Positions 51 through 63,933 of a stretch of 64,000 nt of DNA are shown piece by piece. The first letter of the stretch is position 1; every line of letters starts with the position of its first letter. The notes below the pieces were generated by a model. It was given only the letters and a program-made list of their open reading frames with translations. It was not told where the DNA came from and ran no database searches. Made by a program: the position numbers and the translations under genes. Source of the stretch: Malacoraja senta (Eukaryota); NCBI GenBank assembly GCA_038087875.1, contig CM075988.1, positions 23,066,001-23,130,000 on the forward strand, given 5' to 3'.

Positions 51-371
51 ATTGCAGGATCTCCTGCCTACGCTTCAATGGATTACGAATATTCCACCCA
101 GCGTGTTGCATTGTCGCCACAAGACTTCTGTCCACCTTCGCACTTGGAACCTAAGTCCTTTTACCCGACTTCGGAAGAGTACTTCGCCCACCAACACTAC
201 AGCTGCACGTCAGCTATCTGCTCCATCTTTTCCTGCATGCCAGACAACATGGAGATGGGCTCGGTGTCTGAAAACGGGTCCTTCACAATCCCAGACTACA
301 GGGACTATTCATCGGGATTTCTCACAGAGGATCTCTGGAGGGGAACCCTAAGTGAATGTTTGGACTATTGA
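51..371 (+). CDS. POU2AF3: Last coding exon of a POU2AF3 (OCA-T2/COLCA2)-like POU class 2 coactivator
   Basis: Acceptor ttcctattag|ATT at 50/51. Reads IAGSPAYASMDYEYSTQRVALSPQDFCPPSHLEPKSFYP...HQHYSCTSAICSIFSC...TEDLWRGTLSECLDY*, which resembles the recalled C-terminus of human OCA-T2 (IPGSP...SLDYSYSP...HAQYSC...SICYCASC...DFYKRE). Convergent with POU2AF1, as in the human 11q23 cluster. Confidence 0.8.
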   Translation: MAGSPAYASMDYEYSTQRVALSPQDFCPPSHLEPKSFYPTSEEYFAHQHYSCTSAICSIFSCMPDNMEMGSVSENGSFTIPDYRDYSSGFLTEDLWRGTLSECLDY

Positions 372-18262: not shown

Positions 18263-18328
18263 CTAGGATGTGGCATTGCGATGGTTTGATCCTGAGCCAA
18301 CCCGTCCTTTCTTCAAGAGATGCCTTAT
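18263..18328 (-). CDS. Terminal coding exon of the ankyrin isoform ([21 protein letters not shown])
   Basis: Acceptor ctttacag|ATA; TAG at 18263-18265. Resembles the IkBNS C-terminus LRQLLKRSR. Confidence 0.8.
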   Translation of the reverse strand: MRHLLKKGRVGSGSNHRNATS

Positions 18329-24300: not shown

Positions 24301-27300
24301 GTACAAATCCTGTGCAGTACCAAGGTAATGATGCAGGGAGAACTTGTTAACACTAGTCAGGAACAATTAAACCTTCTGGTACAACATTCCTAGAATAGTA
24401 GGGTCATTGAGTCATTCAGCGCGGGAACATGTTGTCCATGCTGCCCATCTACGCTAGTCCCACATTCCCACGTTGACCCTTATCCCTCTAAACCTTTCCT
24501 ATCCATGTACATGCCTAAATCTCTACATAATTAAAAGTCTCATCTTGTATGTATGTATGTATGTATGTATGTATGTATGTATGTATGTATGTATGTATGT
24601 ATGTTCCCAAAATACAGCCAAAACGGTACACGATAGAGCAACAATTTTAAGGACGCCTCACTCACCATTGGCCTGCGGTGTGCAGTAGCAAGTTACGTTC
24701 GATTTTACAAAGTAATTCCCTTTATAAACCTTAATTTACTTTCTACTGAGAACGACACAAGTTTGAACGCGGTAGACGCGTCTGCGCAGTGCGCTCCCAC
24801 TTGCCGGGCCCGTCAGCCGCGCCTGCGCAGTTGGGGGAGGGTTGCCCGTAAGTGCACAGTGTGTACTTGACTGGCATCACAACGGGAACCAAACAGGTCG
24901 CCACAACTGGGACCCAACGGGTCCACGGGTCGTCTAGTGGCTTCTAAATGCTGTTATAGTGTCTGCCTTCGCTATTTCCACTGGCAGCTTATTCCATGTA
25001 CCCACCATCTTCAGTGTGAAAAATATACCTCTTGGGTTTCTATTCATTCTTTCCCCTCTCACTTTAAACCCATGCCCTCTAGTTCTTGATTCCCCTCCCC
25101 TGGGAAAGAGACTTTGTGGATTCACCCATGTATCCCCATCACAATTTGCAGCAAACTTAAAATCTCATTAAAAAAATATATATCCAGAGACACCTCTCCA
25201 AATAAAACAGGCAATCAATGTAAATTGCCCGTGTTATGATGACTACAATAAGGCTAATGTTTGGAAAACAATGAAGAAAGCTTTGTTTCTAGCCTGGCTG
25301 GAGTGTACACAGAATAATAAGGCATAATATTCGAGGAAAATTCCCCATGCAAGTGCCAGCAAGTTTTAAAGGAATGGGTGACGTTTCGGATCGAACCCTT
25401 CTTCAGTCTTCACCCGAAACGTCACATATTTCTTTTCTCTACGGATGCTGCCTGACCCGCTGAGTTAATCCAGCATTTTGAGTCTATCTTTTTTTAAGTT
25501 GGGTAGTTCTTCTAAACAAGTTACCTGGCTGATTATTAAGGCTCCCATTTCTATCAGTAACCGTATGCAGGACTCCAGTTGCTCAGCTTTACACTGCAGC
25601 TCATCTTGCCTCTGTGGTATCAGGTCAGGATCATAAAAGAGTTCCCGATAAACGGAGTTGTGAGAGATAACTGCGCAATGCAAAGGGGTGAGCCCTGAAA
25701 CACAAGAACGGGAGGTTAATTCCACGACAGGCAGGCAGGCAGGCAAACTTGCAACAAAACCGCGAACATGACAACAACATCTAAACCACAAGACCGACTG
25801 AGCCGCATGTTCGAGCATGTGATGGAAAACTGACGACGTTGGTGTAATTATTGGCCTTCACTGTGCCATGAATTATTTAGCCATAGTTACGTTCTGTGAT
25901 ATCTTGGAGGAGGAGAGATTGTAAAGGTTTCCATAATATGATAATGATTTTCGCATTAATATTTAATTGCCAATAATTATCGGGTCCTGCAGACACGTAC
26001 GAGCTGGGAGTGTTCAGAAGTGTTATGTTTTAATAGAATTGCTTTTGGCAGCCTAGGATAAACAGCAATCGATCCACCATCGCAGATTAGACAACAGCAT
26101 AGATGGCATTAAGTTAAAACAAAGACTCCAATTGTAGGGAAGCTGCATTGTCGGTTGAGGGTGTGGGGCAATAAGGATATCTCTTGAACGTTTCTTTTTA
26201 AAAAACTATTAGTTTATTAAGCAGAATTGGACAATTTCTTGGAAGGTCGACACAACTGATCTATTTGTGACCTTGCAATATAGTCACCTTAATTTCTACG
26301 GCCAGAATCACGTTGAGTGCTAGCTGGCATTTCCAATGACTGATGGACAGCAGAAATCTGGCATCAATCATTCCTCCCACTCACCATTTCTCATTGGTAA
26401 AAGGCGAATAAGTGATGCTGCTGGCATTAGATGTTATTAGCTACAAGGAGAGTTTAGTTTTTTGGGTAGGTTTCGAGATACAGTGTGCAAACAAGCACTT
26501 TGGCCCACCGAGTCCGCACCGACCAACAACCGCCCCATACACTAGTTCTCGCCTACATACTGGGGTAAATTTACAGAAGCCAAGTAACCTACAAACCTGC
26601 ATGTCTTTGGAATGTGGGCAGAATAATAGATAATAGACAATAGACAATAGGTGCAGGAGTAGGCCATTTGGCCCTTCGAGCCAGCACTGCCATTCAATGT
26701 GATCATGGCTGATCATCCCCAATCAGTACCCCGTTCCTGCCTTCTCCCCATATCCCCTGACTCCGCTATTTTTAAGAGCCCTATCTAGCTCTCTCTTGAA
26801 AGCATCCAGAGAACCTGCCTCCACCGCCCTCTGAGGCAGAGAATTCCACAGACTCACCACTCTGTGAGAAAAAGTGTTTCCTCGTCTCCGTTCTAAATGG
26901 CTTACTCCTTATTCTTAAACTGTGGCCCCTGGTACTGGACTCCCCCAACATCGGGAACATGTTTCCTGCCTCTAGCGTGTCCAAGCCCCTAACAATCTTA
27001 TGTGTTTCAATGAGAATCCCTCTCATCCTTCTAAACTCCAGAGTGTACAAGCCCAGCTGCTCCATTCTCTCAGCATATGACAGGCCCTCCATCCCGGGAA
27101 TTAACCTTGTTCCCTGGGAATCAGGAGCACCTGGAGAAAACCCACACGGCCACAGGGAGAAGGTACAAACTCCTCCACAGAACTACTCCTCCACAGAAGA
27201 TTATATTTGAGTTGCTACAGATGGAAATCGTTCGGACGTCACTAATTTGGTAAGAGCATTTATTTTTAATGCAGTATTCTGAAATTTAAAAAAATCTTAA

Positions 27301-30300
27301 AACAGCTCAGGCACAATGATCTGGGAATGTTTGGGAAGGATGGAGCTGGTGATGCCAGACTGGCGAGAGCAGTCATCTGCCAGGAGATCTAACTTGTTGG
27401 CATAGCCAGTAGCTGCACTGGTCAATATTGCTTGCTGCAATGCTCATCTCTGGGGATAGGAACAGTCCCCCTGTCCTGACCAGATATGGTTATCAGGACC
27501 TTCTGGTGAGTCACAAGGAATTGCAGATGCTGGACTCTTGAGCAAAAGTACACAGTGTAGGAGAAACATAGTGGCTTTCTAGATGCTGCCTGACCTGTTG
27601 AGTTTCAGTAGCTTTGAGCACATGGAGTTGCGGAAGCAGGCGCTTCGGCCCACGTCACCACGTCAAGCACCCATGTACACTACTCCCACACACCAATACC
27701 GCTTTACTTTTCCCTGCATTCACCTCGACAGACTCTACCCACTCACTTGTACATTCGTGGTCAGTTTAGACTTCACGAATATGCAAGAGTGGGACATGAC
27801 TGACCAATGGGCGGCACGGTGGTAGAACTGCTGCCTCACAGCGCTAGAGACCCAGGTTCAATCCTGACCTCGGGTGCTGTCTGTGTGGAGTTTGCATGTT
27901 CTCTCTGTGACTGCGTGGGTTTCCTTCAGGTGCTCCGGTTCCTCCCACATCCCAAAGACCATCTCTCTCTCTTTCTCTTTCTTGGGATATGAGCTAAACG
28001 TGGGCAAATGTGACTAGTTTAGATGGGGCATCTTGGACGGCATGGAGGAGTTGGGCTGAAGGGCCTGTTTCCCTGCTGTACAACTATGACATTCAGTCTT
28101 ATGTACTTTTAATGCCATTCATTACAATACTGTGGAGGTATGGTTACCAATCCTGTGATCTTTGTGCATTCTCCAAATTATAGATAAAATCAATTTACGG
28201 ACGTCTGTAAAAACAGAACCCATTGAAGAATGGTCCCGACCCAAAACATCGTCTGTCCATTCCCTTCACTGATGCAGCCTGACCTGACCCGCTGAGTTCC
28301 TCCAGCACTTTGTGTTTTACTCAAGATCCCAGCATCTCCAGAACCTGTTTGTTATTCGGTTGTAGGTCTGCGTTGGAAGCGTTTCTAGCCAGGATCATAC
28401 CTCATTGAACAGCAATGTGGGTTTCATACAGCTAATGGAGCCAAACCGTGAACGACGGAGCAGTAATTACGTACCTTCAAAGTCTCGTGCCTCTAAGTCC
28501 AGCAGTGTTCCCGTTGCTATGACCATCTGCAAAAGCAGACAGGGTTGACTCAGATCACAAATGATAAGTCAAAAGACACTTCCTTGTACATTCTGACAGG
28601 CATAGGCATAATACAATCTATACATCCTCACACCCTAGATATATGATGAGGCATCCTGCTGTGACTAGAATGTAATCGCATTTATTTCTCCAATCCCTGA
28701 GATTTGATCCCACACCTCTCGCAAGGTAGGAATGTGTTTCCAGGTATCATGACCATGCCAGACAAAAGTAACCCCTTGTTTTTCCCACTGGCCTTTTGTC
28801 TCCATTTCACCTCCACCCGTTGTTACAATCTCCACCCACCTGCCAAGAACCCCTCCTCACCTGAATCCACTTATTACTGACCAGCTCTTGCCCCACCATT
28901 TCCACTCACCTTTGTTTACCAACTTTCTCCCCTCTGGTTCTGCCTGACCCGCCGAGTAACTCTAACACTCAGTGTTTTTTTTTTTGTAAACCATCATCTG
29001 CAGTTCCTTGTGTCTGCACAAGTTCACGTTATAGGGGTAGAATTAGGCCATTCGGCCCATCGGCCCTGATCTTGGCCTCCTAATCCCATTTTCCTGCCTT
29101 CTCCCCATCACCCTTGACACCCGTTCTAATCAAGAATTTGTCTGTCTCTGCCTTAAAAATATACACTGACTCTGTGGCAATGAGTTAACTACTCTCTGAC
29201 TAAAGAAGTTCCTCCTCACCTTTTTAAAAGAGCGCCCTTTAATTCTGAGGCTATAACCTCTGGTCCTAGACTCTCCCACCAGTGGCAACATCCTTTCCAC
29301 ATCCACTCTATCTATGCCTTTCATTATTCTGTAAGTTCCAATGAGGTCCCCCCTCAACCTACTAAACTGCAGCGAGTAGAGGCCCAGTGCCTCACCCACA
29401 TTCCTGGAATAATTCTTGTAAACCTCCTCTGGACCCTCTCCAGAAACAGCACATCCTTCCTCAGATATGGGGCCCAAATTTGTTCACAATACCACAAATG
29501 TGGCCTGACCAGCGCCTTGTAGAGGCTCAGCATTACAACTCTGTTTTTGTATTCCAGTCCTCTAAATATAAATGTACTTGTAATCTAGTGTTCCGCTCAT
29601 GCTGTTTTCTCTTTGGTACTCCAGGGATAAATTCCAGACCAGGCTTCTGCCCATGCCAAAAGCGAATAAGATTCCAACTCTTATATTAGCTTAAGATAGA
29701 CACAAAATGCTGGAGGAAATGCTGGCAAATTTCCGCAGATCTGCAATTCACAGCTTGTTTCTTTTATTTTTTTTTATTTTTTATTTTTATTTATTAGAAG
29801 TACATTACATTACAACCACATACATTAATACTCGTCATTTGTATCTTCTTACAATTAATGTACTCCCTTTATTTATTTTTTTACACTAGAAAAGGAAAAG
29901 ATTGAAAGAAAGAAGAAAGTGAAGGAAAAAGTGAAAGTGTAGAAAAGTGTAGAAAATGTAACAACAAAAAAGGACGAAGACCCTATAAGAGCGAAATTAA
30001 AAACAAAAGAAAAAGAGTTAAGAAATAGGCCCTAGGAAAAAAAAGAGAAAGAGAGGAAAAAAAAAAAAAAGAAAAAAAAATGTTTTTTTGAGCATTACGT
30101 AAATAGGACATACCAACTCTTCAACTATCATCCCCCCTTACCTGACCTCAATTTTTTATTTTTTTTAAAGTAATTTTGCACCCTATGTTTGTAATAATTC
30201 TATAAATGCAGACCACGTCAGGTGGAAGTGATCTGGTTTACCTGCTAGGAGGAGTCTTTTCTCTTCTAGGTGTAATGTTTCAAACATATTTGAAATCCAC

Positions 30301-42300: not shown

Positions 42301-45300
42301 AGACTTCTGAACGATCCTTTCATAAGTTAGGGCATGTCCCATTCACCTCTACCCCACAGTGGACACATTCGACTTTGTCCATGGAACGCATGGCGCTACA
42401 ATGCTGAGAACTATATTCTGCACTCTGTATAGAATACAACTGTATTAAGCACCCTTTGCACTATCTACTTTGATACGATACGATAGAACTTTATTTATCC
42501 CAGGAGGGAAATTGGTCTGCAAACAGTCATACAACAAGATACATGAAACATGGAATTAAAGTGATGGGTGGAAAGTCCAGGACTGGGGATGTGCAAAGAT
42601 TGGGGAGGGAGAGGGGAGTCAGTCTACCCCGCGACAGAAGGGGGAGGAGTTGTACAGTTTGATAGCCGCAGGGAAAGAAGGATCTCCTGTGGCGTTCTGT
42701 GTGGAACCAGTCAGTTGCTGAAGGTGCTCCTCAGGAGGGGGTGAGCTGTATTGTTCCGGATGCTCCACTGTTTGAGGAGCATCCTCCCCTCCAAGACCAC
42801 CTCCAGTGAATCCAACTCCGCCCCCAGGACAGCATCTTACTGCAGACATTGAAAGAGCGGAGCCTCCTCAGAAAGTACATAGACGGCTCTGTCCCTTCCC
42901 ATACAGGGCCTCAGTGTTCCTGGACCAGTCCAGTTCACTGTCCAGGTAAACTCCAAGGTACTTGTACTCCTTGGTAAACTGCACATCTTACTGTCATTTG
43001 ACGTGATTTGATGTATGCATAGTATATCTGATCTGTGTGGATAGCATGTAAAACAAAGCTTTTCATTGTACCTTAGTACACATGACAATAATAAACCTAA
43101 GCCTACAAAGTGCGAAGAATTCAGATACTCAAGGACCTGAGCTCCAAGGAGAGGCTGTGCAGGCGAGGACTTTATTCCTTGGAGTGCAGGAGGATGAGAG
43201 GTGATATTATAGAGATGTATAAGGTCATGAGGGGAATAGATGGAGTCGATGCACTGGCTCTTTTACCCAGAGTAGGGGAATCAACATCCAGAGAACACAG
43301 ATTTAATGTGAGAGGGGAAAGATTTAGCAGAAATCTGAAGGGCAATTTTTTCACACACAGTGGGGTGGGTATATGGAACGAGCTGCCAGAGGAGGTAGCT
43401 GAGGCAGGTAGTATGATAACATTTAAAAGACATTTGGACAGGTACATGGATAGGATAGGCTTAGAGGGATATGAGCTAAACGCAGGCAGGTGGGACTAGA
43501 GTAGATGGGGCATCTTGGTCAGCAGGGGCAAGTTGGTAGGCGTGGACTCAGTGGGCCGAAGGGCCTGTTTCCGCGCTGTATCTTTAAACCATCTCTTTAA
43601 ACTAAAAAAAAAAATCCTGTTTGCAAAATTAAGTGATTCAACTGAAGGAAACCAACTCTCCAACAATAAACGAAGTGATTTTACACAAAATGCACATTCA
43701 CGATGCAGTTTCGACACATCCACAATGGTAAGTGTGTAATTCTACAACTCCCCCCACGTGACACGCGGTGAATGAGAGCACTGGGTGAACGCATTCACCG
43801 CTGTAATGGATAGCATTAGCTCTCAGTAATAGCCTATGTTATTAAAGCCAACAGAAATGCTTACCTGTATGACGTTCACATGGCCATAAGTAGCAGCCAG
43901 ATGGAGAAAAGTTAACCCTTTGTCATCAACAGCATTCAGATCAGCACCAAGCAGAATCAGATCCCGGACAATTAGCGGCTGGTTAGCGACCACAGCGACC
44001 ATGAGGGGTGTCTAGGAACGTAACAAAGTGCATAGTTGGCATGGAGAAGTGGTGCATAAATAATAGCAGCAAACAGAAGAAGGTGTTCAATGTTCTATGT
44101 TTTAGTGTTTATGATCTATGTTCTATGTTCTAAGGACCAGTCAACATCTCCAGCCTATTTGATTAGTACGGGTGTCAAGGGTTATGGGGAGAAGGCAGGA
44201 AAATGGGGTTAGGAGGGAGAGATAGATCAGCCATGATTGAATGGTGGTGTAGACTTGATGGGCTGAATGGCCTAATTCTGCTCCTATCACTTATGACCTT
44301 ATGACCTTTTTCTGCCATCCAGCTAATTCAAAGCAGATTTGTATCTTTACCATTTATTTGGTTTGAAGTTTCTTTTCTCTGAATAATCTGAAGATGCAAA
44401 TCGATCATAGTTATGAAATTTTCACTGAACCTGCCCTCAGTAACATCTTGGGAAGAGAATTCCAAACTTTCATCATCGTTTCTGTGAAGAATTATTTTTG
44501 GACATGTTTTCTGTACAGTATTACTCTAACACATTAAGCCCTTTGAAACTGAACTCCCCTTTGGAAGAAATAACATCTTTTGATCGACCTCATAAAATCC
44601 TTTAACAGTTTTAGATGCTCTAATCGGATCATCTCTGTGATGTTTGGTGGACTGTGTGGGGTGGGAGGACCCATTGCTCCTCCCATGCAGCGCCCCCTGC
44701 TGCACGGAAGGAGCAACGGGTCCTCCCACCCCACACAACAGAAGTCTTTAATGCGTTACTCAATGCTGGCAGCAAGACAACTGAAAATGGCGAATTTGGA
44801 CTTCTTCGACTTCGTTGGGTGAGTGGGCGCCGTATAAGAGATATGGGTCGGGTTGGAACCAAAATGTACACCGTCCAAGGACAAGAAGGACAATGCCGAC
44901 GGCATGATGACCAATTAAGAAGCCGCGTTCCTCCAGCGAAGACTGCGCAGAACCTGACCAGAACCAAGCAGTCGGACACCCCGGTGCCGAATCGTGTGGA
45001 TGCTGGAGTGCCTGACTTGCCCCTCCCCTGGCTTGACGAAGTTCTGCCAGATGAACTCCCCGCCGATCTGCCTGTGGTCCTTCGTCGATCGACACGTTGC
45101 AATCGTGGTACTCCCCCAAGGCGACTCATTCAGGAATAGAGACGTTCAAACTGGAAAGGGGGAATGTGATGTTTGGTGGACAGTGTGGGGTGGGAGGACC
45201 GTTGCTCCTCCCGTGCAGCAGGTGGCGCTGCACAGGACATCGGGAGATGTTTTGTATATATTTTTCTCCTGTCTGTGTGTGTGTGCAGCCATTTTGAGTT

Positions 45301-48300
45301 GTCTTGCTGCCAGCATTGAGTAAAGCATTAAAGACTTCTGTCATCAATTGAAGACTCTCATGTTTCGTGCAGACCTAGAAAACGAACACGAAAATCTCTT
45401 AACTCTGTAGTCAAATATGAATTAATTTCTGGTCACAGCGTAGATTTACAAGGTTAATTCCCGGGATGGCGGGACTGTCATATGCTGAGAGAATGGAGCG
45501 GTTGGGCTTGTATACTCTGGAATTTGGAAGGATGAGAGGGAATCTTATTGAAACATATAAGATTATTAAGGGTTTGGACACCCTAGAGGCAGGAAACATG
45601 TTCCCGATGTTGGGGGAGTCAAGAACCAAGGGCCACAGTTTAAGAATAAGGGGTAAGCCATTTAGAACGGAGACAAGGAAACACTTTTTCACACAGAGGG
45701 TTCTGTGTCTGTGGCGCCCCCCCCCCCACATCAGTCTGAAACATCGCCTATTCTTTCGCTCCATTGAAGCTGCCTCACCCGCTGAGTTTCTCCAGCATTT
45801 TTGTCAACATCTCATAATTTTATATACTTTCTCTCTGAACAGTATTTTCAAAAATTCTAGACAAGCAAATTAGTTGACTAAAGAGAGCACATTAAGATTT
45901 GTATACCTTTCCCCTGTGTTCTTTTGTGTCAAGTCTTCTGAGCTCGTGCATCCGCTCAGCGGCTGCGTAGGCGTGTTCCCGCATACCTTTTGCTGCATAG
46001 ATGTGGAGGATTCTGCAAAAGAATAATCATACAATTCATACAATTGCAGGTTAGACTGAGTGCTAAAACCCCTGTCCCACGGTACGAGTTCATTCCAAGA
46101 GTTCTCCCGAGTTTGCCCCGATTCGAATTCCGAAATTTACGGTAATGGCCACTCGTCGGTACTCGAGGCTCTCGTGGACATTTTTCATCATGTTGAAAAA
46201 TCTTCACGAGTCTTCCCATGCTTACCTGTGTTTGCGAGTCTTCCTGAGTACCTGCCGTTAGCGCTAAGAGACGTCCCCGAGCTCCGACGTACCCGCTACG
46301 TTCATTCTCCATGCTTACCACGAGTTTGATTTTTTAAAAACTTTTGAGCTTTAACTTTGCTACCACTTTTGAGAACAATGGATGGACATCCAGTTTTTTC
46401 CAAACTAGAGCTTCAGGGCGCATTGGGTGGAGACGCGGCGTTAATGAGTACCATTGGTTGCCTGGCTGATCCCTACTGGTGTCGTGACAGGAAGTTTGTG
46501 AAATGATGCGATACGATAGAACGTTATTTATCCCAGGAGGGAAATTAATTTGCCAACAGTCATAAAAAACACAAAATACATGAAACATGGAAATAAAGTG
46601 ACGAGTGGTAAGGCTTTGGGGATGTGCAAAGATTGAGGAGGTGGGGGGGTGGGGGGGTCAGTCTCAGTCACCCCCATAACAGAAGGGGGAGGAGTTGTAA
46701 AGTTTGGTAGCCACATGGAAGAAGGATCTCCTGTGGCGTTCTGTGAAGAATGGATGGTTCGCAAGGTGGAGATGGCTCAGCTGAAAGGTTCAGAAGGACT
46801 AGCGCTAATGTACCTCCTTGCAACTTTCTAAAGGCATTGATGACCAAAGGCACAAAGAAGGTCATCACATGTTCCTATGACCATGGGTTAAGGATAGATT
46901 CAAGAATCATCAATAAGAGATGGGAGTGAAGGATTATGCTTTGGAGAGATGACACTAGGATTACCTTATTTTAGAAGTATTTCCTATTTTGCTTCATAAG
47001 TTTCTATGTGATGGGAGCAGACATATTAGAGATATACTAATATTGGGAGTAGTTCAGAAGAGATCGAGGAGGTTAATTCCCATGATGAGAGGGTTGTTTA
47101 AAAAAAATAATCAAAAATGGCTTTAAAAAAAGTCTAGATGTCTTGTTCTGGAGTTCAGATGAAGGAGTGATTTTATTGAAACATAGAGGACCCTAAAGAA
47201 GCTTAAGCCAGTAAATGTGACGATATTTCCACCAGTGGGAGAGTCTTAGCTAGTCAGTTTAGTTTATTGTCATGTGTACCGAGGTACAGAGAAAATTTTT
47301 TGTTGCTTGCTAACCAGTCAGCAGAAAGACAATACATGATTACAATCGAGCCATCTACAGTGTACAGATACATGATAAAGGGAATAACGTTTAGTGCAAG
47401 AATAATGTTTATGGCAAGAATAACACTTTATGCAAGAATAACATTTAGTGCATGTTTAGCGCAGTGTTGAATGAGAGGACATGGTTACAAGATAAGGGGC
47501 AACTATTTAAGACTGAGGTACATAGGAATTTCTTCTTTCAGATCTCGGTGAATCTCTGGAACTCGGTGAATGTGGAAGCTTTAATTTAGTTTAGTTTAGA
47601 GATACAGTGCAGAAACAGGCCCTTCAACCCACTGAGTCCGTTCTGACCAGCGATCCCCGCATACACTAACCTACACACACTAGGGACAATTTTACAACTT
47701 ATCAAAACCGATTAAGCTACAAACCTGTACGTCTTTGGAGTGTGGGAGGAAACCGGAGCACTGGGAGAAAACCCACGCAGTCACAGGGAGAAGGTACAAA
47801 CTCCATACAGCCAGCACCCGAGGTCAGGATCGAACCCAGGTCTCTGACGCTGTGAGGCAGCAACTCTAATTTAGTTTAGTTTAGAGATACAGCGCGGAAA
47901 CAGGCCCTTCGGCCCACCGGGTCCGCGCTGCCCAGCAACCCCCGCACATTTACACTATCCTACACCCACTCGGGACAATTTTTACATTTACCAAGCCAAT
48001 CAACCTACAAACCTGTACGTCTTTGGAGTGTGGGAGGAAAGCGAAGATCTCGGGGAAAACCCACGCAGGTTACGGGGAGAACGTACAAACTCCGCACAGT
48101 ACCCATAGTCAGGATCGAACCCGGGTCTCCGGCGCTGCATTCGCTGTAAGGCAGCAACTCTACCGCTGCGCCACCGTGACCTCCCTAATGTTGCACCATT
48201 GGGCTTGATTACTGCAAGTGTTTAAAAATAAGTTAGATAATCTATTTAATCAGTAGCTGTATTAATTTGGCACAGGAGGGCTGGGGCGTTTCAGCCGAGG

Positions 48301-51300: not shown

Positions 51301-54300
51301 CTCCATTTAGGCAACAATCCACCTTTTGAATCCTTCCAAGGAAGTGCATGACATCACTCACACCTCCCCTTCATTAAACTCCATTTCGCAGGTTTTTGTC
51401 CAATCACACCCCGATGTAGAGTCATAATGTCCTTCTTACAATCTGCCCTTCCACCTACTTTTGTATCGTGGGCAAACTTGAAAACCTTACATGTCGTACG
51501 TATCCTCCTCCAAATCATTAATGTGAAGCGATCCTCAGGGAACTCTGCAGGTTACATCACTCCAGCCTGAAAATGACCCATTTAGAGTAATGTCTTTGTT
51601 TTCTATATGATGTCCAGTTCTTAATACTTGCCCGCACACATCCTCCAATACCTTGGGCCCTTAATTTGTGCACTAACTCATTCTGTCATGCCTTACCAGT
51701 CTGAAGAAGGGTTCCAACCCGACCAGACAGATCAGGAGATCTTCTCTCCAGAGATGCTGCCTGACCCGCTGAGTTACTCCAGCACTTTGTGTCTATCTTT
51801 GGTATAAATCTGCATCTGCAGTTTCTTCCTACACAACTTATTAAGTGCCATTTCTAAATCTAAATACACCAGATTGCACACTATCATCTTTCCCCGTCAA
51901 ATCCTCAAAACATTTCAGCAAAATTGTCTACCATGATGTACCTTTCATAGGACTATGAGACATGGGAGCAGAATTAGGCCATTCGGCCCATCTAATCTAC
52001 TCCGTCAATCAATTATGGCTGATCTAATTTTTCCCCCTCAACTTCATTCTCCCCCCTTTCCCTTCCCCTTCCCCAATAAATCGTTGACTAGAAATATAGA
52101 AACAAAGAAAAATAGGTGCAGGAGTAGGCCATTCGGCCCTTTGTCAGCACCACCATTCAATATGATCATGGCTGATCATCTAAAATCAGTACCCCCGTTC
52201 CTGCTTTTTCCCATATCCCTTGATTTTTTTTAGCCTTGAGAGCTAAATCTAACTCTCTTGTGAAAGACTAGGTTTGATTATATTCAGCTTCTTTAAACAA
52301 ATAGTTAGTTTCCTCTTTGATTGATGAATCGAGTAAGTGCAGTGACCACATGACATTAACAATACATTGCACCAATAAATATAATTAAAGTTATCTTAAC
52401 TACCGCTCCTTTGCTTCAGCCGAACAGAGTAATCCCTTTGTTCTGTCCATTCCTCTTCCGCAACTTCTCTCTTATCTGAACTAATTTGTTTTTCCCTTTC
52501 TCAGTTGTACTGCAGGTTCCACATCTGGAACGCTATCTGTTTCTCTTTCCGCAGATGCAGTCTGACTTTTTCTGTTTATTTTTATTGTGTATTTTTCCAG
52601 AATCTTTAATTTTCATTTAATTTTGAAAAGAAACGATCCTTTACATCTTAGACAAAGGTATAAGTTATATTAAGGCCTTAGTCCAGGAGCTGACCATTTC
52701 AGCCAACAGGGCAATGTCTACTAGCACTTTTCAGTAACTTCCTCCAATTTCTTTCTCTCCATAGTTTAACATCGATTCCTTGTCATTGCACCCATGTTGT
52801 TTGCCACAACCACTTCCTATGGGACAGTATTTAGCATTCTCAGCTACTTCCAGAGTGAAGTGCGGCACAATGGTGCAGCGGTAGAGTTGCTGCCTCACAG
52901 CTCCAGAGACCCGGGTTTGATCCTGACTATGGGTGCTGTCTGTACGAAGTTTGCACGTTCTCCCTGTGACCGCGTGGGTTTCCTCCGGGTGCTCCAGTTT
53001 CCTCCCACACCCCCAAAGACGTTCAGATTCACAGGTTAATTGGCTTCGATAAAATTGTAAATTGTTCATAGTGTGTAAGATAGTGCTAGTGCTCGGGGGG
53101 ATTGCTGGTCGGTGTGGACTTGGTGGGCCGAAGGGCCTGCTTCCTCGCTGTATCTCCAAAGTGTAAAAGGCCAGGAAAAGAGAAAGCTCTCTTTCCTTTG
53201 CCTCTATGTCTCAACACGAACCCTTATCTCAAGACTGCCATCAGTTTCTTTATACTGTAAAATATTAACTTCATAAAGAGTGTCTTACGCAGGACATCAA
53301 TGATTATCTTTGGCCAACCGGAAAAATAAACAGAGAATATGACTTCAATCATCAATGCATCAAATGTAATTGAAAGCAGACATGGTACAGATGCTTCTGT
53401 CGGACACAGACTTGAAAAAGTCAATAACGTGGAGACTAAGTACTGTCAATTTCTCAATGCTGGCAACAAGAGGTATTCATAAATACCATATCAGCTAATC
53501 TATCTCTGGACTGTTTCAAGTCCACCACCTGGTGCCAAACAATCTAATGCTCACACAGTTCAAGCTTCATGAAGATACGATACAACGACGTTATGGAGAG
53601 GAGCATATTTTTCCACCTTTAGCCCTATCACTTTAATGAACAGGCAGCATTAAAAAAATGAAATCCTATTTACAGATCCAGATCAAGTTAACTCTGGCCA
53701 TTTAAACAAAGAAAACATAAGACATTACCATTTTCATCGCATTACCACAGATAGCCATTGGTCTATTGGGCTCACAAAAATGCTGGAGAAACTCAGCGGG
53801 TGCAGCAGCATCTATGGAGCGAAGGAAATAGGCAACGTTTCGGGCCGAAACCCTTCTTCAGACTTGGGCTCACCTGGTATCTATACCCCATGTGAAGCTT
53901 TCTAACCTATTATAAAAACTATTCATTTTTTCCCTCAGAATCTTTTCTATCTTCAGCTCACAAGCATCAAGATGCCTGGAAATGTAACCTAATTTGTCTA
54001 CTTTGCTTCCTAACTTTTTAGTCAACAAAGTCAGTAGATCTCACTTTTGAAAGCAGAATGGAATTCTCAGCTGATACGTTTGATGGAGAGGATTTTGAGT
54101 GTTTACCTGCAATGGAATCTAAAGACTATTCATGGTCAGAGTCAAGGGTCATGTGTACAGAGACTGAAACAATGGAATTCTTGCTTACTGCAGCTTTACA
54201 GGCTGAGAGTCTTGATGTGTAGGGAGGAACTGCGGATGCTGGTTTAAACCGAAGACAGACACAAAATGCTGGAGTAAATGCAGGCCGCATCTCTGGAGAG

Positions 54301-57300
54301 AAGGAATGGTTGACGTTTCGGGTCCAGACCCTTCTTCAGTCTGGGAGTGAGGGGAACAGGAGAACGAGAGGTGGATGGTACTCAAGGGGAAATTAATGAA
54401 AAACATGCAGAAAGCATTTTGGAAACGTCATCCCTGCCACCCATTCCTTCTCTCCAGAGATGCTGCCTGTCCCGCTGAGTTAAAGAGTGCCCATGGTAGA
54501 CTCACGAGTCACTACGGTAAACCCACGGGCTACTACGTTCTTACGACGAGTTTAAAAGTTTAAAATTTTTACTTCAAGAGTAAATTTGACTCATGGAAAT
54601 CTTTCATCATGTTGAAAGATTTTTACGAGTTAACAAGTTTCCCGAGTACCTGCCGTTAGCGTTACGAGTTCCGACGTTCCCGCTACGTTAATTCTACGTG
54701 ATTACCACGAGTTTGATTTTAAACTCGGGATCACTCGTGGGTGGACTCGCACCGTGAGACAGGGGTTTAATCAAGGACATGACATACATTTCCTTGATAA
54801 CAATGGCTGATTGTGTGTCCCACATTCCCTTGATTATCTTTGCTTTCTGCATATCTTCCATTCATTTCTCCTAAGTACCATCTATATCTCCAGTTCCCCT
54901 TTCCCCTGACTCTCAGTCTGAAGTCTCGACCCGAAACGTCACCTCTTCCTTCTCTCCAGAGATGCTGCCTGTCCCGCTGAGTTACTCCAGCTATTCATGC
55001 CTGTCTGTGAGACTTGCTGTTGTGAGTGACTGCCACGTGAGAGACAGCTGGCAGTGTGCTGACCAGTGAGTGGAGTGACACTTCACATCATGGACCAGAA
55101 ATATTTTAAATCAAAAACAAAGTGCTGGAGAAATTCATGAGCCAGGCAGCATCTGCGGAGGGAAATGGACAGACAACTTTTCGGGTCGGGATCATGCTTC
55201 CAAGTGAGGAAGGATCCCACCTTGTAACAGTCTCTGTCGATATCCCTCCATAGTTGGTACTGAACAGCCATGTTCCTCCAGCACTTTTTGTCAGCGTTTG
55301 TAGGGTCCCGACCGGAAACATCACCTACGTATCCATAGGCTCTACATGTGCGATGAGTACTCTGTGGACTATGTTTCATATCTGTTATGCTGCAGCACGT
55401 AAAAATGTTATTGCTCCATTTTGGGACAGTCTTGACTCTTGCCTGACCCGCTGAGTTACTCGAGTACACAAAAATGCTGGAGAAACTCAGCGGGTGCAGC
55501 AGCATCTATGGAGCGAAGGAAATAGGCAACGTTTCGGGCCGAAACCCTTCTTCAGACTGATAGGGGGTGGGGAGAAGAAAGGAAGAAAGGAAAAAAGGCG
55601 GAGGAGGAGCCCGAGGGCTGGGGGATGGGAGGAGACAACCAGAGGGCTGATGAAGGGGAGGGGACAGCAAGGGCTAGCAGAATTGGGAGAATTCAATGTT
55701 CAATTACTCGAGTACTTTGTGTTTAGCTCAGCTATTAAACCTGGTCAGCATGGATGGGTTGGGCTGAAGGGCCTGCTTCTGTGTGATTAAAAACATGACT
55801 CACTAAAGACTTCTCCATTTTGTAATCAACAACAGTGAGTTTAGTTATGAAACATTCACATATTTGCATTTGATTTCTTTGGAATTATTTTAAAATTATT
55901 TAATTCATTTTAATGCAGCATTAAAAGAAGTGCCTCAGCAAATGTTACATGATCATGGGCTGATATGTAAACAATTTAAACTGTAGCCAGAGTTTAGCAG
56001 AGGTTTAATCTGGAATAATAGTTGATATTAAAAATATATATTTCTAGTGTCTAAGTCGTCATAGAAAAATAATCACTTGCTGCAAATACATTTCCAAGCT
56101 GTAGCTCTGAACTAAACCAAACTGCACCAAACTGCACTAAACTAAACTGAATTAAACTAAGCTGCATTAAACTACTCTAAACTACACTACAAGCATTGTG
56201 TTGAGCTCATAGGCTCCCACTATTAAAATAAATGCTAAATATGGTCACCCTGTGACAAGCAGTTTCAACTCAATCAAGACCAGTGATAATGGAAATGTAC
56301 CTTTGGGATGTTTTAAATGTATGTCTTTGTGCTGAATGCCAAATGTGACGGGTTCGTAAATGCTTTTCAATGCCCGTGACAGATCGCTAACTGTACAGCA
56401 GGACGCTTCCTAAAGCGGTCTTTCGGTAAATTAAACCTGACAGATGTTTAACAAAAATGCAGTGAGTAGGTCTTGTCACTGTCGACAGATCGGTGTTGAG
56501 CAAACAGATCATGGCACACAGCTGATGGTCTTGCCTTAAGTCTTAAGCGTGGATCCAATTGATAAATGAACTATTGTCAAATAGAAAGTTAGGAATATGG
56601 GGCTGACATATAGTAACAAACACCAAGAGATCCAATAGAAACTTAGAAACATTGAAAATAGGCGGAGGAGTAGGCCATTCGGCCCTTCGAGCCTGCACCG
56701 CCATTCAATATGATCATGGCTGATCATCCAACTCAGTATCCTGTACCTGCCTTCTCTCCATACCCCCTGATCCCTTTAGCCACAAGGGCCACATCTAACT
56801 CCCTCTTAAATATAGCCAATGGACTGACCTCAACTACCTTCTGTGGCAGAGAATTCCAGAGATTCACCACTCTCTGTGTGAAAAATGTTTTTCTCATCTC
56901 GGTCCTAAAAGACTTCCCCCTTATACTTAAACTGTGACCCCTTGTTCTGGACTTCCCCAACATCGGGAACAATCTTCCTGCATCTAGCCTGTCCAACCCC
57001 TTAAGAATTTTGTAAGTTTCTGCAAGATCCCCCCTCAATCTTCTAAATTCTAGCGAGTACAAGCCGAGTCTATCCAGTCTTTCTTCATATGAAAGTCCTG
57101 ACATCCCAGGAATCAGTCTGGTGAACAATGTGTAGGAAGGAACTGCAGATGCTGGTTTACACCGAAGATAGACACAAAATGCTGGAGTAAAAGCCCTGTC
57201 CCACTATACGAGTTCATTCAAGAGCTCTCCCGAGTTTAAAAAAAAAATCGAACTCGTGGTAAGCACGTAGAATGTACGTAGCTGGTACGTCGGGGCTCGG

Positions 57301-60300
57301 GGACGTCTCTTAGCGGCTCGTAACGCTAACGGCAGGTACTCGGGAAACGCGGTAAGCTCCGGGAGACTCGTGAAGATTATTCAACATGTTGAAAAATGTC
57401 CACGAGAGCCCCGAGTACCTACGAGCGGCCATTACCGTAAATCTCCGAGTTCGAATCAGGGCAAACTCAGGAGAACTCTTGAATGAACTCATACAGTGGG
57501 ACAGGGCTTTAACTCAGCGGGACAGGCAGCATCTCTGGATAGAAGGGGTGATGTTTTGGGTCTAGATCCTTCTTCAGACTGAGAGTCAGGGGAGAGGAAG
57601 ACACAGAGGCAAGGAAGTGTAAGATGTGAAAACAAGACATCAAAGGAGATGCAGATCAAGGAAAATGTAGGATAGATCATTGCTAGCTAGGAGCAGGTGA
57701 CAACGAAGCATACAGAGATAAAATTTAATCAGGAGGTCAGTCGGACTGATCGGAGAACTAGGAAGGGGGAGGGATGGAGAGAGACCGAAAGCAAACGTTA
57801 CTTGAAGTCAGAGAAGTCAATATTCATACTCTTCCATCTACCTAAACTTGCAAGAAGCAACGTGACAAGAATGTATATAGATAGATACGAGGAACTGTAG
57901 ATTCTGATTAATACACAAAAGGGCAGGAATTGTTGGAGTAACTCAGCAGGTCAGGCAGCATCTCTGAAGAACATGGATAAGTGACGTTTCGGGTTAAGAC
58001 CATTCTTGACTCAACATGGATAGGTGACATTTCAGGTCGACACCCTTCTTCAGATTGAAGTCCTATCCATGTTCTCCAGGGATGCTGCTCGACCTGTTGA
58101 GTTTCTCCAGCATCTTGTGCCCTTTTGTGACAAGAATTCATGTCATCAGTAGGAGTTACAAGCTGCAAGCCCTCTCTAGCACCTTCCTCTATGGTCATAT
58201 AGCTGTGGCTCTCTGCACGACTACTACTCAACCTAGACATTCTGGCTTCCCCGCTGCTAGTGCAAAGTAACGTACGTGTCATTGTCTTCGTCTTGCTGCA
58301 GCAGCTTCTCAATGGGCATGTTGGCAATGGTTCTCCTGGCATCCTCCAGCTCCAGAAGTCCAGGCTCAGGGCTGGAAATGTTCAGAGGCACAAACTGGGG
58401 CGGCAGAGACGGCAAGGGGCTTGCCGGACACGGCGTCCCCGGTGCGGGTAGAGCCGAGAGCGTTTGGCACCAAGGAGAGTGATTGAGCGCCTGCTGCTGG
58501 CATGAAAGATCCATTTGCGGAAGACCAGCTGGCGTGGGCACCCTCGACTGTGGAGAAACAAAAACGGGTTTGATCAACTGACAGTTCACAGGTTCACAAG
58601 TTACAGGAGTTGAATTAGGCCATTTGGCCCATCGAGTCAATCATGGCTGATCTCTGCCTACTAATCCCATTCTCCCGCCTTCTCCCCATAACCCTTGACA
58701 CCCGTTCTAATCAAGAATATTTCTGCCTTTTTTGCATATCTTAGAAACATAGAAACATAGAAAATAGGTGCAGGAGGAGGCCATTCAGCCCTTCGAACCA
58801 GCACCGCCATTCATTGTGATCATGGCTGATCGTCCCCAATCGATAACCCGTGCCTGCCTTCTCCCATCTCCCTTGACTCCACTAGCCCCTCGAGCTCTAT
58901 CTAACTCTCTCTTAAATCCATCCAGTGACTTGGCCTCCACTGCCCTCTGTGGCAGGGAATTCCATAAATTCACAACTCTCTGGGTGAAAAAGTTTCACTC
59001 ATTTGTTCCTTTCATTCATTTGTTCCATATCTCTCTATGTCACCACTTATATCTCTCATTTCCCTTTCCCCTGACTCCCAGTCTGAAGAAAGGTCTCCAC
59101 CCGAAACGCCACCCGCTCTTTTTCTGCAGAGATGTTGCCTGCCCCGCTGAGTTACTCCAGCTTTTGGTGTCTTATCACTGATTACCCTCTGCTGGATTAA
59201 TGGTCAGGGCTCAGTTATCACTGGGTCCAGAGGGAGGGATATGGGAGGTAGGGGGCAGGGGGGGGGAGAAAGTGGGGGGATAAAAGATGGCTGCGGAGGC
59301 CAAGTCATTGAGTATTTTTAAGGCGGAGGTTGACAGATTCTTGATTAGTACGGGCGTCAGGGGTTACGGGGTGAAGGCAGGAGAATGGGGTTGAGAGGGA
59401 AAGATAGATCAGCCATTATTGAACGGCGGAGTAGACTCGATGGGCCGAATGGCCTAATCCTGCCTCTATGACTTGTGAACATACGGAAATGGAAAATGAG
59501 GGGATGAGAGTAAGGAGGAGAGTAAAGGAACAGGGTGGTGGGGGGGTAGGTGGGAGGAATGTGTGCGTGAGGGAAAGGAACACGAGGGGGTAGGGGGGGT
59601 ATAACTTGAAAGGGGGCAATTCAACGTTCATACCCACAGGTTGTAACAACCTGGTGTTGAGCCATTGCAGTACCAGGGGCGTGCTGTTGGGGGTGATGTT
59701 GGTCAGACAAGGCAATAAAACGAGAGGCTCCTTTCCTTCTCAGATGGGTGTAGAAATTCCCCTGGCATTATTTCACGTAAGAGAGTGATATCCTTCCCTC
59801 TCACTCCCCCACCGCACCCAACCACCCCAAGAGCCTTCGAAATACTCAATGAACATCACAAAATAGCCAGGCAATCTGACCATGTATTGAAACTGGCTGT
59901 GTGCAAACAGACCATGGCTCTTCCTATTTACTATGTTTCTATGTTTCTATGTTTCTATTACAACAGTGTCTACAAGGCAAAGGCACTTGGTTGGTCTGCA
60001 TGGCTATTTTGATGTCCCGGGACTGAGATTGATGCTAAATAATTGCAAATAATTTATTTTTCCATCTGCAGCTTCTAAATTACAAATGTGTTACCAATAT
60101 GCATTATTATCTTTGTACTTGCAGCATATCAGCATAGCAGCCACCCACACTGATTAGCGTGAATATTAATTGCTCCAACACTTTCCACAGTGAAAGGGAG
60201 TTAAGTGATGATACGTTGACATTATTTGAAATGATAAGCAGTGATGGAGTTAAACTCGGCAGCTTTTCAATCACCATTTCAATATGGCATAGACTAAGCG

Positions 60301-63300: not shown

Positions 63301-63933
63301 GCTACTAGTCCAGTGACAATCCTGCTCACAGCAGCATCACCAGCGCATAAACTCAGACAAACGCACAAAAACAAATTATACATAAATGACACTGAAGAAG
63401 GGTCTCGACCCGAAACTTCACCCATTCCTTTTCTCCACAGATGCTGCCTGCCCCGCTGAGTTACTCCAGCATTTTGTATCTATCTTCGGTTTAAACCAGC
63501 ATTTGCAGTTCCTTCCTACACAATGACACTTAACTTATTTGTTTGTGCACTACACGACTCTACGATTGCAAGGCATCAAAGGTGTTCTTTCCCCCATTCA
63601 TTGTACCCTTGGTGTGAGCGCGTGAAAACCCAAGACAGTATCCTACCTGGCAGTTCCCTGCGAAGTTGCTCTGCAATGGTTGCGGACTGTAAGACATGAC
63701 CGAGGGGGGCCCCAGCATTGTGTAGCTGGGACAGGCAGCTTGCATGCACATGTCTTGCATGTACGGTGAGTTGACGGCATCGTGCGAGGGGTAACTGGGG
63801 CAAGGTGACCACTGTGACACCGGCTGTAGGCTGGCAGAGGATGGCTGAGGCAGCCATGTAGTGTGAAAGGTTCCCTCCTCAGCAGGTTGCACTGGTGATG
63901 AAGCAGCATCTGTCTCATGGAACACCGGATGTC
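18263..63933 (-). CDS. POU2AF1: POU2AF1 (OCA-B) long isoform with C-terminal IkBNS/IkBzeta-type ankyrin domain, 5'-partial. Exons: 63647-63933, 58276-58547, 45907-46012, 43865-44011, 28475-28526, 25525-25694, 23540-23659, 20698-20862, 18263-18328
   Basis: Nine exons, all introns GT-AG with matching phases (0,2,0,0,1,0,0,0). Total 1385 nt with no internal stop. The first two exons match OCA-B and the last seven match the NFKBID-type ankyrin domain. The splice joining the two parts is inferred. Confidence 0.8.
18501..18700. mobile_element. PIF/Harbinger (Tourist-like) MITE
   Basis: TIRs agggcctgtcccac / gtgggacaggccct, with TTA on both flanks. Confidence 0.85.
18901..19291. mobile_element. PIF/Harbinger-type MITE
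   Basis: TIRs tgggcctgtcctacttaggc / gcctaagtgggacaggccca; flanks TAA and TTA. Confidence 0.8.
20698..20862 (-). CDS. Ankyrin exon, NFKBID-like ([55 protein letters not shown])
   Basis: tctcctag|GCT...CAG|gtgagg, 165 nt. AHGNTxLHMAA and GADPxxRNLENxQP are IkBNS/IkBzeta signatures. Confidence 0.92.
23540..23659 (-). CDS. Ankyrin exon, NFKBID-like ([40 protein letters not shown])
   Basis: aaacag|GAC...AAG|gtttgt, 120 nt. Matches IkBNS EIKSNKTVLHLAVQ...FVNMK. Confidence 0.9.
24044..24230. repeat. Near-perfect palindrome (93-bp arms) formed by inverted Penelope-like termini
   Basis: Arms centred on 24137. The insertion is flanked by the direct repeat accctttgtgtgaaa (24000-24014 and 24228-24242). 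Confidence 0.9.
24520..24937 (+). mobile_element. Non-autonomous Helitron carrying a (TATG)n microsatellite
   Basis: Inserted between A and T inside a CR1 tail. 5' TC, 3' CTAG, hairpin ggaccc-aac-gggtcc at 24910-24924, no TSD. Confidence 0.8.
25525..25694 (-). CDS. Ankyrin exon with the nuclear-IkB insertion ([57 protein letters not shown])
   Basis: gtttcag|GG...CAG|gtaact, 170 nt, phase 1 to 0. GLTPLHCAV followed by a long insert, as in IkBzeta/IkBNS. Confidence 0.92.
26630..27110 (-). mobile_element. CR1-type LINE 3' fragment
   Basis: [23 protein letters not shown]... ORF and (ctattgt)n tail. Confidence 0.85.
28475..28526 (-). CDS. Small ankyrin exon ([18 protein letters not shown])
   Basis: cttttgcag|ATG...GAAG|gtacgt, 52 nt, phase 0 to 1. 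DLEARDFEG matches the recalled IkBNS motif. Confidence 0.9.
29764..33187 (-). mobile_element. 5'-truncated L1-clade LINE (ORF2 RT and C-terminal zinc domain, 3' UTR, A-rich tail) with 18-bp TSD
   Basis: TSD attcacagcttgtttctt at 29746-29763 and 33188-33205. Motifs [35 protein letters not shown] (31821-31832) and CDKC...H...C. Confidence 0.95.
30183..33122 (-). pseudogene. L1 ORF2 remnant in a single frame with two nonsense codons
   Basis: The 379-aa and 508-aa ORFs share a frame and are separated by TAG (31983-31985) and TGA (31851-31853). The endonuclease domain is missing through truncation. Confidence 0.9.
34390..35135 (+). mobile_element. Degenerate CR1-type LINE 3' end with nested fragment
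   Basis: [10 protein letters not shown] motif and a typical CR1 3' UTR ending ctctatgactctatg. Confidence 0.75.
39115..40310 (-). mobile_element. Non-autonomous Helitron containing a minisatellite array
   Basis: Minus-strand 5' end tctctataactaaaagtctcaacttg matches the start of the 24520 element. 3' CTAG, inserted at A|T, hairpin partly deleted. Confidence 0.75.
39236..39908. repeat. Minisatellite, about 11 units of roughly 50-75 bp
   Basis: Unit caagcacagggcaggccaaacaactcattgcattttcatttcatttccatttccattgcagttt with variable (catttc)n content. Confidence 0.95.
42465..42990 (-). mobile_element. Rex1/Babar-like LINE fragment
   Basis: Ends [12 protein letters not shown] with a (cgtat)n-type tail; related copy at about 46505-46745. 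Confidence 0.55.
43130..43590 (+). mobile_element. CR1-type LINE 3' fragment
   Basis: 129-aa ORF ([18 protein letters not shown]...WNELPEEV). Confidence 0.85.
43865..44011 (-). CDS. Ankyrin exon, NFKBID-like ([49 protein letters not shown])
   Basis: gttcctag|ACA...CAG|gtaagc, 147 nt. Matches IkBNS TPLLVAAAANQPLIVEDLL...LHVAATYG. Confidence 0.93.
44636..45393 (+). mobile_element. Internally deleted Gypsy-like LTR retrotransposon with a rearranged 5' LTR
   Basis: ATCTC on both flanks (44631-44635, 45394-45398). Both LTRs start tgtgatgtttggtgga (44636, 45165). Polypurine tract ggaaagggggaa precedes the 3' LTR. The internal [10 protein letters not shown] resembles the end of Gypsy pol. Confidence 0.8.
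45907..46012 (-). CDS. First ankyrin exon ((T)[35 protein letters not shown])
   Basis: cttttgcag|A ATC...AAG|gtatac, 106 nt, phase 2 to 0. Matches IkBNS TLLHLFAARGLRWAAYAAAE...RRLDIREHKGK. Confidence 0.93.
46067..46335. mobile_element. Partial Harbinger-type MITE, same family as 57191-57509 (another partial copy at about 54483-54767)
   Basis: One TIR (aacccctgtcccacggtacgagttcattc) plus shared internal sequence. Confidence 0.7.
49163..49253. repeat. (TTTAG/TTCAG)n microsatellite, a retroelement tail
   Basis: Read directly. Confidence 0.85.
50673..50921. mobile_element. PIF/Harbinger-type MITE
   Basis: TIRs agggcctgtcccacttggcgatt / aatcgctaagttggacaggccct; TTA on both flanks. Confidence 0.85.
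56636..57126 (-). mobile_element. CR1-type LINE 3' fragment
   Basis: 131-aa [37 protein letters not shown]... Confidence 0.88.
57191..57509. mobile_element. Harbinger-type MITE inserted in a Penelope-like terminus
   Basis: TIRs aagccctgtcccact / agtgggacagggctt and TAA TSD. Removing it restores the common gctggagtaactcagcggg sequence. Confidence 0.9.
58257..58547 (-). CDS. POU2AF1: POU2AF1 exon equivalent to the mammalian last exon. Read-through ends DNDTYVTLH* at 58257; the internal donor after 58276 leads to the ankyrin exons
   Basis: tctccacag|[13 protein letters not shown]...[43 protein letters not shown] aligns by eye with human OCA-B PWPQPLSTLP...PQFVQLPISIPEPVLQDMEDPRRAASSLTIDKLLLEEEDSDAY. 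Confidence 0.93.
   Translation of the reverse strand, partial: SRVPTPAGLPQMDLSCQQQALNHSPWCQTLSALPAPGTPCPASPLPSLPPQFVPLNISSPEPGLLELEDARRTIANMPIEKLLQQDEDNDTYVTLH
60290..60720 (+). mobile_element. Penelope-like retroelement 3' part (GIY-YIG endonuclease C-terminus and terminal repeat)
   Basis: EHLR...[11 protein letters not shown]...[21 protein letters not shown]. Similar pieces near 3935-4075 (-), 11845-11975 (-) and 21385-21560 (+). Confidence 0.8.
63647..63933 (-). CDS. POU2AF1: POU2AF1 internal exon (equivalent to the mammalian penultimate exon)
   Basis: tcttcag|GA...CAG|gtagga, 287 nt. [18 protein letters not shown]...[22 protein letters not shown] matches human OCA-B WLSQPTPATLQPLAPWTP...DMYVQPVCPSYTVVGPSSVLTY. 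Confidence 0.93.

Follow-up and report, generated by a model that had tools for sequence, protein, structure and literature searches.

The POU2AF1 gene of the skate Malacoraja senta quite probably preserves the organisation of the jawed-vertebrate ancestor, with OCA-B as an atypical IκB protein that has two possible ends. This is the best explanation overall for the gene structure, the domain content and the distribution of the two protein forms described below. The stretch of DNA that was analysed, here called the window, comprises 64,000 nucleotides and contains the 3' part of POU2AF1 (OCA-B) on the minus strand. One exon in it, referred to as the shared exon, ends in a splice donor with an in-frame stop codon close behind. 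The donor and the stop are read in the sequence itself, and use of the donor is taken from orthologous long models. Splicing at the donor would give a long protein that continues into an ankyrin domain, and reading through it would give a short protein of the kind known as OCA-B in mammals.

Layout of POU2AF1 in the window

By sequence, the gene in the window is the orthologue of POU2AF1/OCA-B. Two exons pass the PF09310 cut-off of 25.7 bits (81 and 90 bits, with E 1e-22 for the shared exon), the shared exon is 95-96% identical to POU2AF1 of Leucoraja and Amblyraja, and the tree nests the gene among the long OCA-B forms of rays. The exons upstream of 63933, including the one encoding the OCA motif, lie beyond the end of the window; the motif is present at the N-terminus of POU2AF1 in three skate relatives. 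The features are collected in Table 1.

The preliminary description of this DNA proposed that the donor AC/gtacgt gives the ankyrin form when it is used, and the exon structure agrees with this. The exon at 58547-58276 joins in phase 2, at 58276, to the exon at 46012-45907 and continues in frame through seven ankyrin exons in all, down to 18263. The long form is one open frame of 460 amino acids within the window, in which the ankyrin exons are bounded by AG and GT and the last one ends at a stop, and frame and splice sites are intact across 45 kb. The other predicted outcome, a short end when the donor is ignored, can also be read directly, as the codons ACG TAC GTT ACT TTG CAC TAG give T-Y-V-T-L-H-stop with the TAG at 58259-58257.

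The likeness that was drawn between this end and the human one is weak. The residues Y and V are spelled by positions +2 to +6 of the donor, so the skate tail resembles the human one mostly because of the donor itself, and it has five residues after the T compared with 12 in human. The N-terminal half (PF09310) of human and mouse OCA-B (POU2AF1, OBF-1, Bob1) is orthologous to that of the skate, and the human protein ends 12 residues past the same junction. The skate gene differs in its five-residue tail and in having retained the donor, an intact DxDxDT hairpin and the seven exons of the ankyrin domain. The strength of the donor is ordinary, with 7 of 9 consensus positions matched compared with 5 to 8 across the eight donors of the gene.

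Table 1. Features of POU2AF1 in the window, with positions counted from the first letter of the window
Feature	Position	Strand	Basis
POU2AF1 coding exon, proline-rich middle	63647..63933	-	PF09310 E 2e-25; splice sites
Shared exon	58276..58547	-	95-96% to skate POU2AF1; acceptor ccacag/TCG
3' end of the shared exon: predicted capping helix and acidic DxDxDT hairpin of ankyrin repeat 1	58276..58547	-	coelacanth orthologue aligned to IκBζ 9BOR; sawfish orthologue model
Splice donor CAC/gtacgt, phase 2	58270..58278	-	7/9 consensus positions
Read-through tail: end of the T codon, Y-V-T-L-H and TAG stop (58259-58257)	58257..58275	-	sequence
Candidate poly(A) hexamers for a short mRNA: ATTAAA first at 57729, cluster 56009-55904; AATAAA first at 52586, 52580	52575..57729	-	
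Ankyrin exon 1: helices of repeat 1, including an E-H pair whose IκBζ counterpart contacts the p50 NLS	45907..46012	-	acceptor ttgcag/AATC; 94% to sawfish (tblastn)
Ankyrin exon 2	43865..44011	-	Pfam Ank E 4e-10
Ankyrin exon 3	28475..28526	-	splice sites, frame
Ankyrin exon 4, extended repeat 4	25525..25694	-	splice sites; no indel in contigs of two relatives
Ankyrin exon 5	23540..23659	-	splice sites, frame
Ankyrin exon 6	20698..20862	-	Pfam Ank E 4e-9
Last coding exon of the long form, ends in TAG	18263..18328	-	95% to sawfish C-terminus

Two further features were seen in the window. An open frame on the plus strand (window 51-371), 106 codons to a stop, faces the 3' end of POU2AF1 and gave no match in Pfam or the Atlas; by the human gene order of POU2AF1, POU2AF2 and POU2AF3, this could be the last exon of POU2AF3. 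Inside the 15-kb intron, and on the same strand as POU2AF1, lies an AT-rich LINE-type reverse transcriptase with two long open frames of 406 and 555 amino acids (30186-33203, minus strand).

The ankyrin domain and the acidic end of OCA-B

The nearest solved structure is the ankyrin domain of IκBζ with p50 (9BOR), both by sequence (E 2e-66, aligned with the coelacanth orthologue) and by fold (TM 0.87 by target, matched with a model of the sawfish orthologue). The alignment starts within the shared exon: the helix in front of the donor aligns to IκBζ 422-429 and the residues D-E-D-N-D-T to D441-T446. The sawfish model has a helix at 239-251 (block pLDDT 93 at 241-250) followed by seven helix pairs with a long pair at 371-416. 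Two features of an atypical IκB, seven ankyrin repeats with an extended repeat 4 and a capping helix, are found in this model, whose ankyrin part is 92% identical to that of the skate.

According to passages in Zhu et al. (PMC11293385), helix 417-429 of IκBζ caps repeat 1, and without the helix the domain unfolds and p50 binding is abolished. The same passages list D443, E477, H478, R514 and D411 as residues in contact with the nuclear localization signal (NLS) of p50. The equivalents of D443, E477 and H478 are kept in the skate; that of R514 is L in the skate and K in coelacanth, and D411 falls outside the alignment. By analogy with IκBζ, the long form would probably bind p50/p52.

An acidic stretch near the C-terminus of OCA-B activates transcription by a mechanism that is not yet established, as stated in part of a 2026 review (PMC13043367). 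Because the sequence in front of the donor corresponds to the capping helix and the first-repeat hairpin of IκBζ, the acidic activation stretch of mammalian OCA-B is likely to be the left-over ankyrin lead-in, a hairpin of repeat 1, which would give this stretch a structural identity. The preliminary description had derived the mammalian acidic tail from the lead-in of repeat 1 together with read-through into a former intron, and both parts of this are supported. In alignments, the capping helix and ankyrin-1 hairpin of IκBζ match the acidic end of short OCA-B, whose last 12 residues lie past the donor.

A fold in which the 12-residue tail bends back to mimic the first ankyrin helix was also considered and found no support. 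The chicken short OCA-B model (mean pLDDT 51, pTM 0.14) has the tail as coil at a pLDDT of about 50 and is too weak to refute such a fold. Both the capping helix and the tail have diverged strongly in euteleosts. Catfish OCA-B is without a working activation domain according to a section of the review (PMC13043367), and a link between the two observations is possible.

Spread and ancestry of the long form

The shared exon and the OCA part of a tortoise protein served as queries for records that combine OCA and ankyrin sequence. Such records were found in rays, sharks, chimaera, bichir, sturgeon, gar, bowfin, eels, turtles, alligator and birds, with a partial record in coelacanth. Apart from single substitutions, the switch to ILHI falls on one and the same residue in all of these long records. 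The long ankyrin form is therefore not confined to the lineage of the skate but extends to sharks, chimaera, bony fish and sauropsids, as the ancestral state put forward in the preliminary description implies. A protein search with 62 hits gave no long form from mammals, squamates, amphibians or euteleosts; for mammals, squamates, frogs and euteleosts this absence is one of protein records rather than of genomes. The long ankyrin form is very likely ancestral to jawed vertebrates.

A tree of 38 ankyrin sequences, built without an outgroup, joins the 21 OCA-B domains in one group, roughly in species order (support 92/94, below the starred threshold). This group adjoins seven named IκBNS sequences (86/86) and is apart from IκBζ (100/100). 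The skate ankyrin domain accordingly does not group with NFKBID (IκBNS) as an orthologue would but belongs to a separate group, and the electric ray Narcine has one gene in the OCA-B ankyrin group and another in the IκBNS group.

The skate ankyrin domain is 92% identical to that of sawfish. Compared with horn shark, the skate differs at 36 of 273 residues in the ankyrin part and at 54 of 186 in the OCA part, and sawfish at 21 of 273 and 33 of 186. The ratio is the same in both, thus the ankyrin exons of the skate show no sign of decay. Against two related organisms, the listed synonymous and non-synonymous differences amount to 3/3 for the ankyrin exon and 6/8 for the shared one; these counts are too few to be informative, and the tables of differences omit differences near contig ends (nine other letters per contig, five of them listed).

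IκBζ (NFKBIZ) resembles long OCA-B in having an OCA motif, a capping helix and seven ankyrin repeats, the fourth of them long, but its ankyrin domain is 38-42% identical and falls in a separate clade. Its OCA motif is described in PROSITE (part of PMC12807641). The nearest paralogue is IκBNS (NFKBID), with an ankyrin domain that is 48-56% identical and forms the sister group, and with a homologous N-terminal half. It differs in being a separate gene that has a degenerate OCA helix only, the GVRV part being missing in the seven named records scanned.

Chicken short OCA-B aligns over the first 231 residues of salamander IκBNS (28%, E 6e-10), which argues that the ankyrin domain is not a late add-on. 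This chicken-salamander pair was the only significant one in pairwise BLAST; human OCA-B against platypus IκBNS was not. Salamander IκBNS matches PF09310 weakly and below the cut-off (E 0.007). The sequence comparisons suggest that OCA-B and IκBNS are likely to be whole-gene paralogues, with short OCA-B as the truncated state. The OCA motif common to IκBζ and OCA-B would then be explained by common descent of whole genes and not by shared microhomology, and OCA-B, a B-cell coactivator and lymphoma dependency, would be recast as the stump of an IκB.

A degenerate OCA helix, T-V-K/R-x-L-L with basic residues behind it but without the GVRV part, is retained at the N-termini of IκBNS from salamander, frog, electric ray, sardine, platypus and ostrich. 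This helix might be a remnant or a POU-independent motif.

Two other accounts of the long records place the origin of the ankyrin part outside OCA-B. In one of them, the ankyrin exons are a separate tandem gene, IκBNS-like and with its own start, OCA-B itself has the short form throughout, and the long models are read-through chimeras of two neighbouring genes. Separate 'NFKBID' records of 178-265 amino acids for the ankyrin exons in chicken, prairie chicken and king quail agree with this, as do three skates that have short records only among the matches found. Such a tandem gene is nevertheless very unlikely, because the junction splits repeat 1 and leaves its capping helix and hairpin in the OCA-B exon, and IκBζ without this helix unfolds and loses p50 binding, according to the passages of PMC11293385 cited above. 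The lead-in is moreover intact only where long forms exist, and the first ankyrin exon begins in phase 2 behind its acceptor. The other account, in which the domain was gained several times by fusion to an IκBNS copy, draws on the support of 92/94 for a single OCA-B ankyrin group, which is not starred. It is less likely still and hardly credible, since the group largely tracks the order of species between chimaera and birds, all members have the junction at one and the same residue, and OCA-B and IκBNS are homologous in their N-terminal halves as well.

The short form and the two ends of OCA-B

Among 83 short forms from bony vertebrates other than euteleosts, 80 have a tail of 12 residues after the junction, and an end of the type L-x-[VIA]-x-G-[FLIM] is likewise found in 80 of the 83. 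Random intron sequence would give a 12-residue tail in about 3% of draws, with the reservation that the records are related and not independent draws. The tally covers 92 named short records. It leaves out unnamed proteins from Logan, two smelt records that lack the anchor motif, many redundant cluster members, three galliform records ending S-W-S-H and one chimaera model ending Y-L-S-L-R-F. The galliform records represent a third ending, D-T-S-W-S-H, in chicken, guineafowl and Montezuma quail, made with the same donor and another acceptor.

Bowfin, gar, bichir, coelacanth, turtles, crocodilians and birds have the 12-residue tail and still retain the long form. Both full forms are on record for seven turtle, crocodilian and bird species, namely two tortoises, loggerhead turtle, alligator, ptarmigan, chickadee and blackcap (518/519 and 256 amino acids). 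The long and the short record of the same species are identical for 244 residues and part exactly at the junction codon. The evidence for the isoforms consists of public gene models, with the exception of chicken short OCA-B, which is an NP_ record; the chicken ankyrin exons are filed as a separate 'NFKBID' record. For gar, bowfin and sturgeon, every RefSeq model is of the long form. The short records of gar, bowfin, bichir and eel look homology-built, two of them are labelled partial, and their ends may not be stops.

T-Y-V together with an intact DxDxDT was found in all 43 short forms from lineages with the long form. The combination was found in none of 19 placentals, 16 squamates, two frogs and five euteleosts. 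T-Y-V persists after the loss of DxDxDT in platypus, Tasmanian devil and two salamanders, and tuatara and two caecilians keep both, though no long form was found in them. The I-F pair of Anolis rules out GT at the donor; for placentals, protein sequence cannot show a loss of GT. The simplest reading is that the ankyrin lead-in decayed first and the donor motif later. The long form was likely lost separately in mammals, squamates, frogs and euteleosts, and several independent losses, if true, predict unannotated ankyrin exons in caecilians and tuatara.

The tail is kept in lineages with the long form and both forms are on record in the same species; therefore the short form very probably predates the mammals, judging from the sequences, and was not made by donor loss. 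Its end was likely already under selection by the time of the bony-vertebrate ancestor. This departs from the preliminary description, which had mammalian OCA-B arise through loss of the donor. A donor mutation that turned the intron into a new tail would fit the 19 of 19 placental records without T-Y-V, as expected of a decayed donor. However, the 12-residue tail was found in 39 of 39 short forms of bony lineages that still have the ankyrin form, and platypus and Tasmanian devil keep T-Y-V although their lead-in has already decayed. Loss of GT in placentals is not demonstrable from protein, GT being excluded only by the Anolis pair. Such an origin of mammalian OCA-B is highly improbable.

That both isoforms are made in Malacoraja senta is, on the sequence, an evenly balanced proposition. 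The alternative, that cartilaginous fish make the long form only, is almost as probable but stays somewhat below even chances; TYVTLH-stop would then be ordinary intron and the two-end system a trait of bony vertebrates, which is compatible with the evolutionary part of the preferred explanation. Among the 25 cartilaginous-fish cluster members examined, three models are short, all from chimaera, and none of the short records is from sharks or non-skate rays, in keeping with a long form only. Among six sequencing runs, none was listed as RNA, which has no bearing on expression, and the contigs of four runs showed no informative joints. The skate tail is without the L-x-[VI]-E-G end of bony vertebrates, and its sixth residue varies among four skates (Y, Y, Q and H). 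The Leucoraja short model runs through intron sequence, and the skate short models may be artefacts. Besides the ordinary strength of the donor, 52% of the first 3.3 kb of the intron behind it is repeats, and a scan of this intron for poly(A) hexamers gave none above the background of about one per kb for each hexamer. On the other hand, three skate annotations end at the read-through stop, and the chimaera models end Y-V-P-L-Q, with the same length and the same position of L as in the skate. Random intron sequence would match this length and L in about 0.6% of draws, although the chimaera models may not end at a stop. No change at 58256-58371 was found among the differences listed against contigs of two related organisms, a weak indication in that donor, tail and stop make up 19 bases.

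An mRNA that retains an intron and is spliced downstream is a target of decay. The short protein would therefore need an intronic poly(A) site, for which the hexamers in Table 1 are candidates. In the two-end explanation preferred here, the shared exon would be a composite terminal exon, and the choice between the donor and intronic cleavage would set the ratio of long to short protein. Splicing at the donor would yield the long protein, which would clamp Oct1/2 on octamers by means of its OCA motif and use the ankyrin domain to bind p50/p52 in the manner of IκBζ. When intronic cleavage and polyadenylation win, the short protein would keep POU binding only, and its orphaned capping helix, acidic hairpin and intron-coded tail could serve as an activation end. 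Mammals, squamates, frogs and euteleosts would have dropped the long form independently, with decay of the lead-in and next of the donor motif to follow.

A composite terminal exon with intronic polyadenylation is known from the choice between secreted and membrane IgM. The likeness lies in a donor within a coding exon, an in-frame stop close behind it and a gene of B cells; in the present case the poly(A) site and the regulation are predicted.

A wider scenario can be put forward tentatively, as possible though less than an even prospect. OCA-B would have begun as a fourth atypical IκB, sister to IκBNS, and would still bridge Oct and p50 in B cells of sharks, gar, turtles and birds, the donor would have been a regulated switch between this bridging protein and a POU-only one since the origin of jawed vertebrates, the acidic stretch of human OCA-B would be a repurposed NLS-binding hairpin from ankyrin repeat 1, and the ankyrin exons would still be present in tuatara and caecilians. 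A working Oct/NF-κB bridging protein is the prediction for chicken-relatives, turtles, gar and sharks.

The OCA-plus-ankyrin architecture is already known from IκBζ, and long OCA-B models are present in public databases, often under the name NFKBID. No description of an ankyrin-bearing OCA-B was found in the literature searched. In the OCA-B review, the section on evolution names sharks and the word 'ankyrin' does not occur in the portion consulted (PMC13043367), and an ankyrin-bearing OCA-B is not raised in the corresponding portions of PMC11393961, PMC13682367, PMC12074568, PMC7731945 and PMC12755459. It is thus probably new to the literature, although this is not secured.

The name 'NF-kappa-B inhibitor delta-like' is misleading for long OCA-B proteins. 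Many bird records named 'IKBD/NFKBID' and shark, gar and eel records named 'NF-kappa-B inhibitor delta' are the long form of POU2AF1 or its ankyrin half, which affects comparative immunology, as many public bird and fish 'NFKBID' records are POU2AF1. Ostrich also has a true IκBNS.
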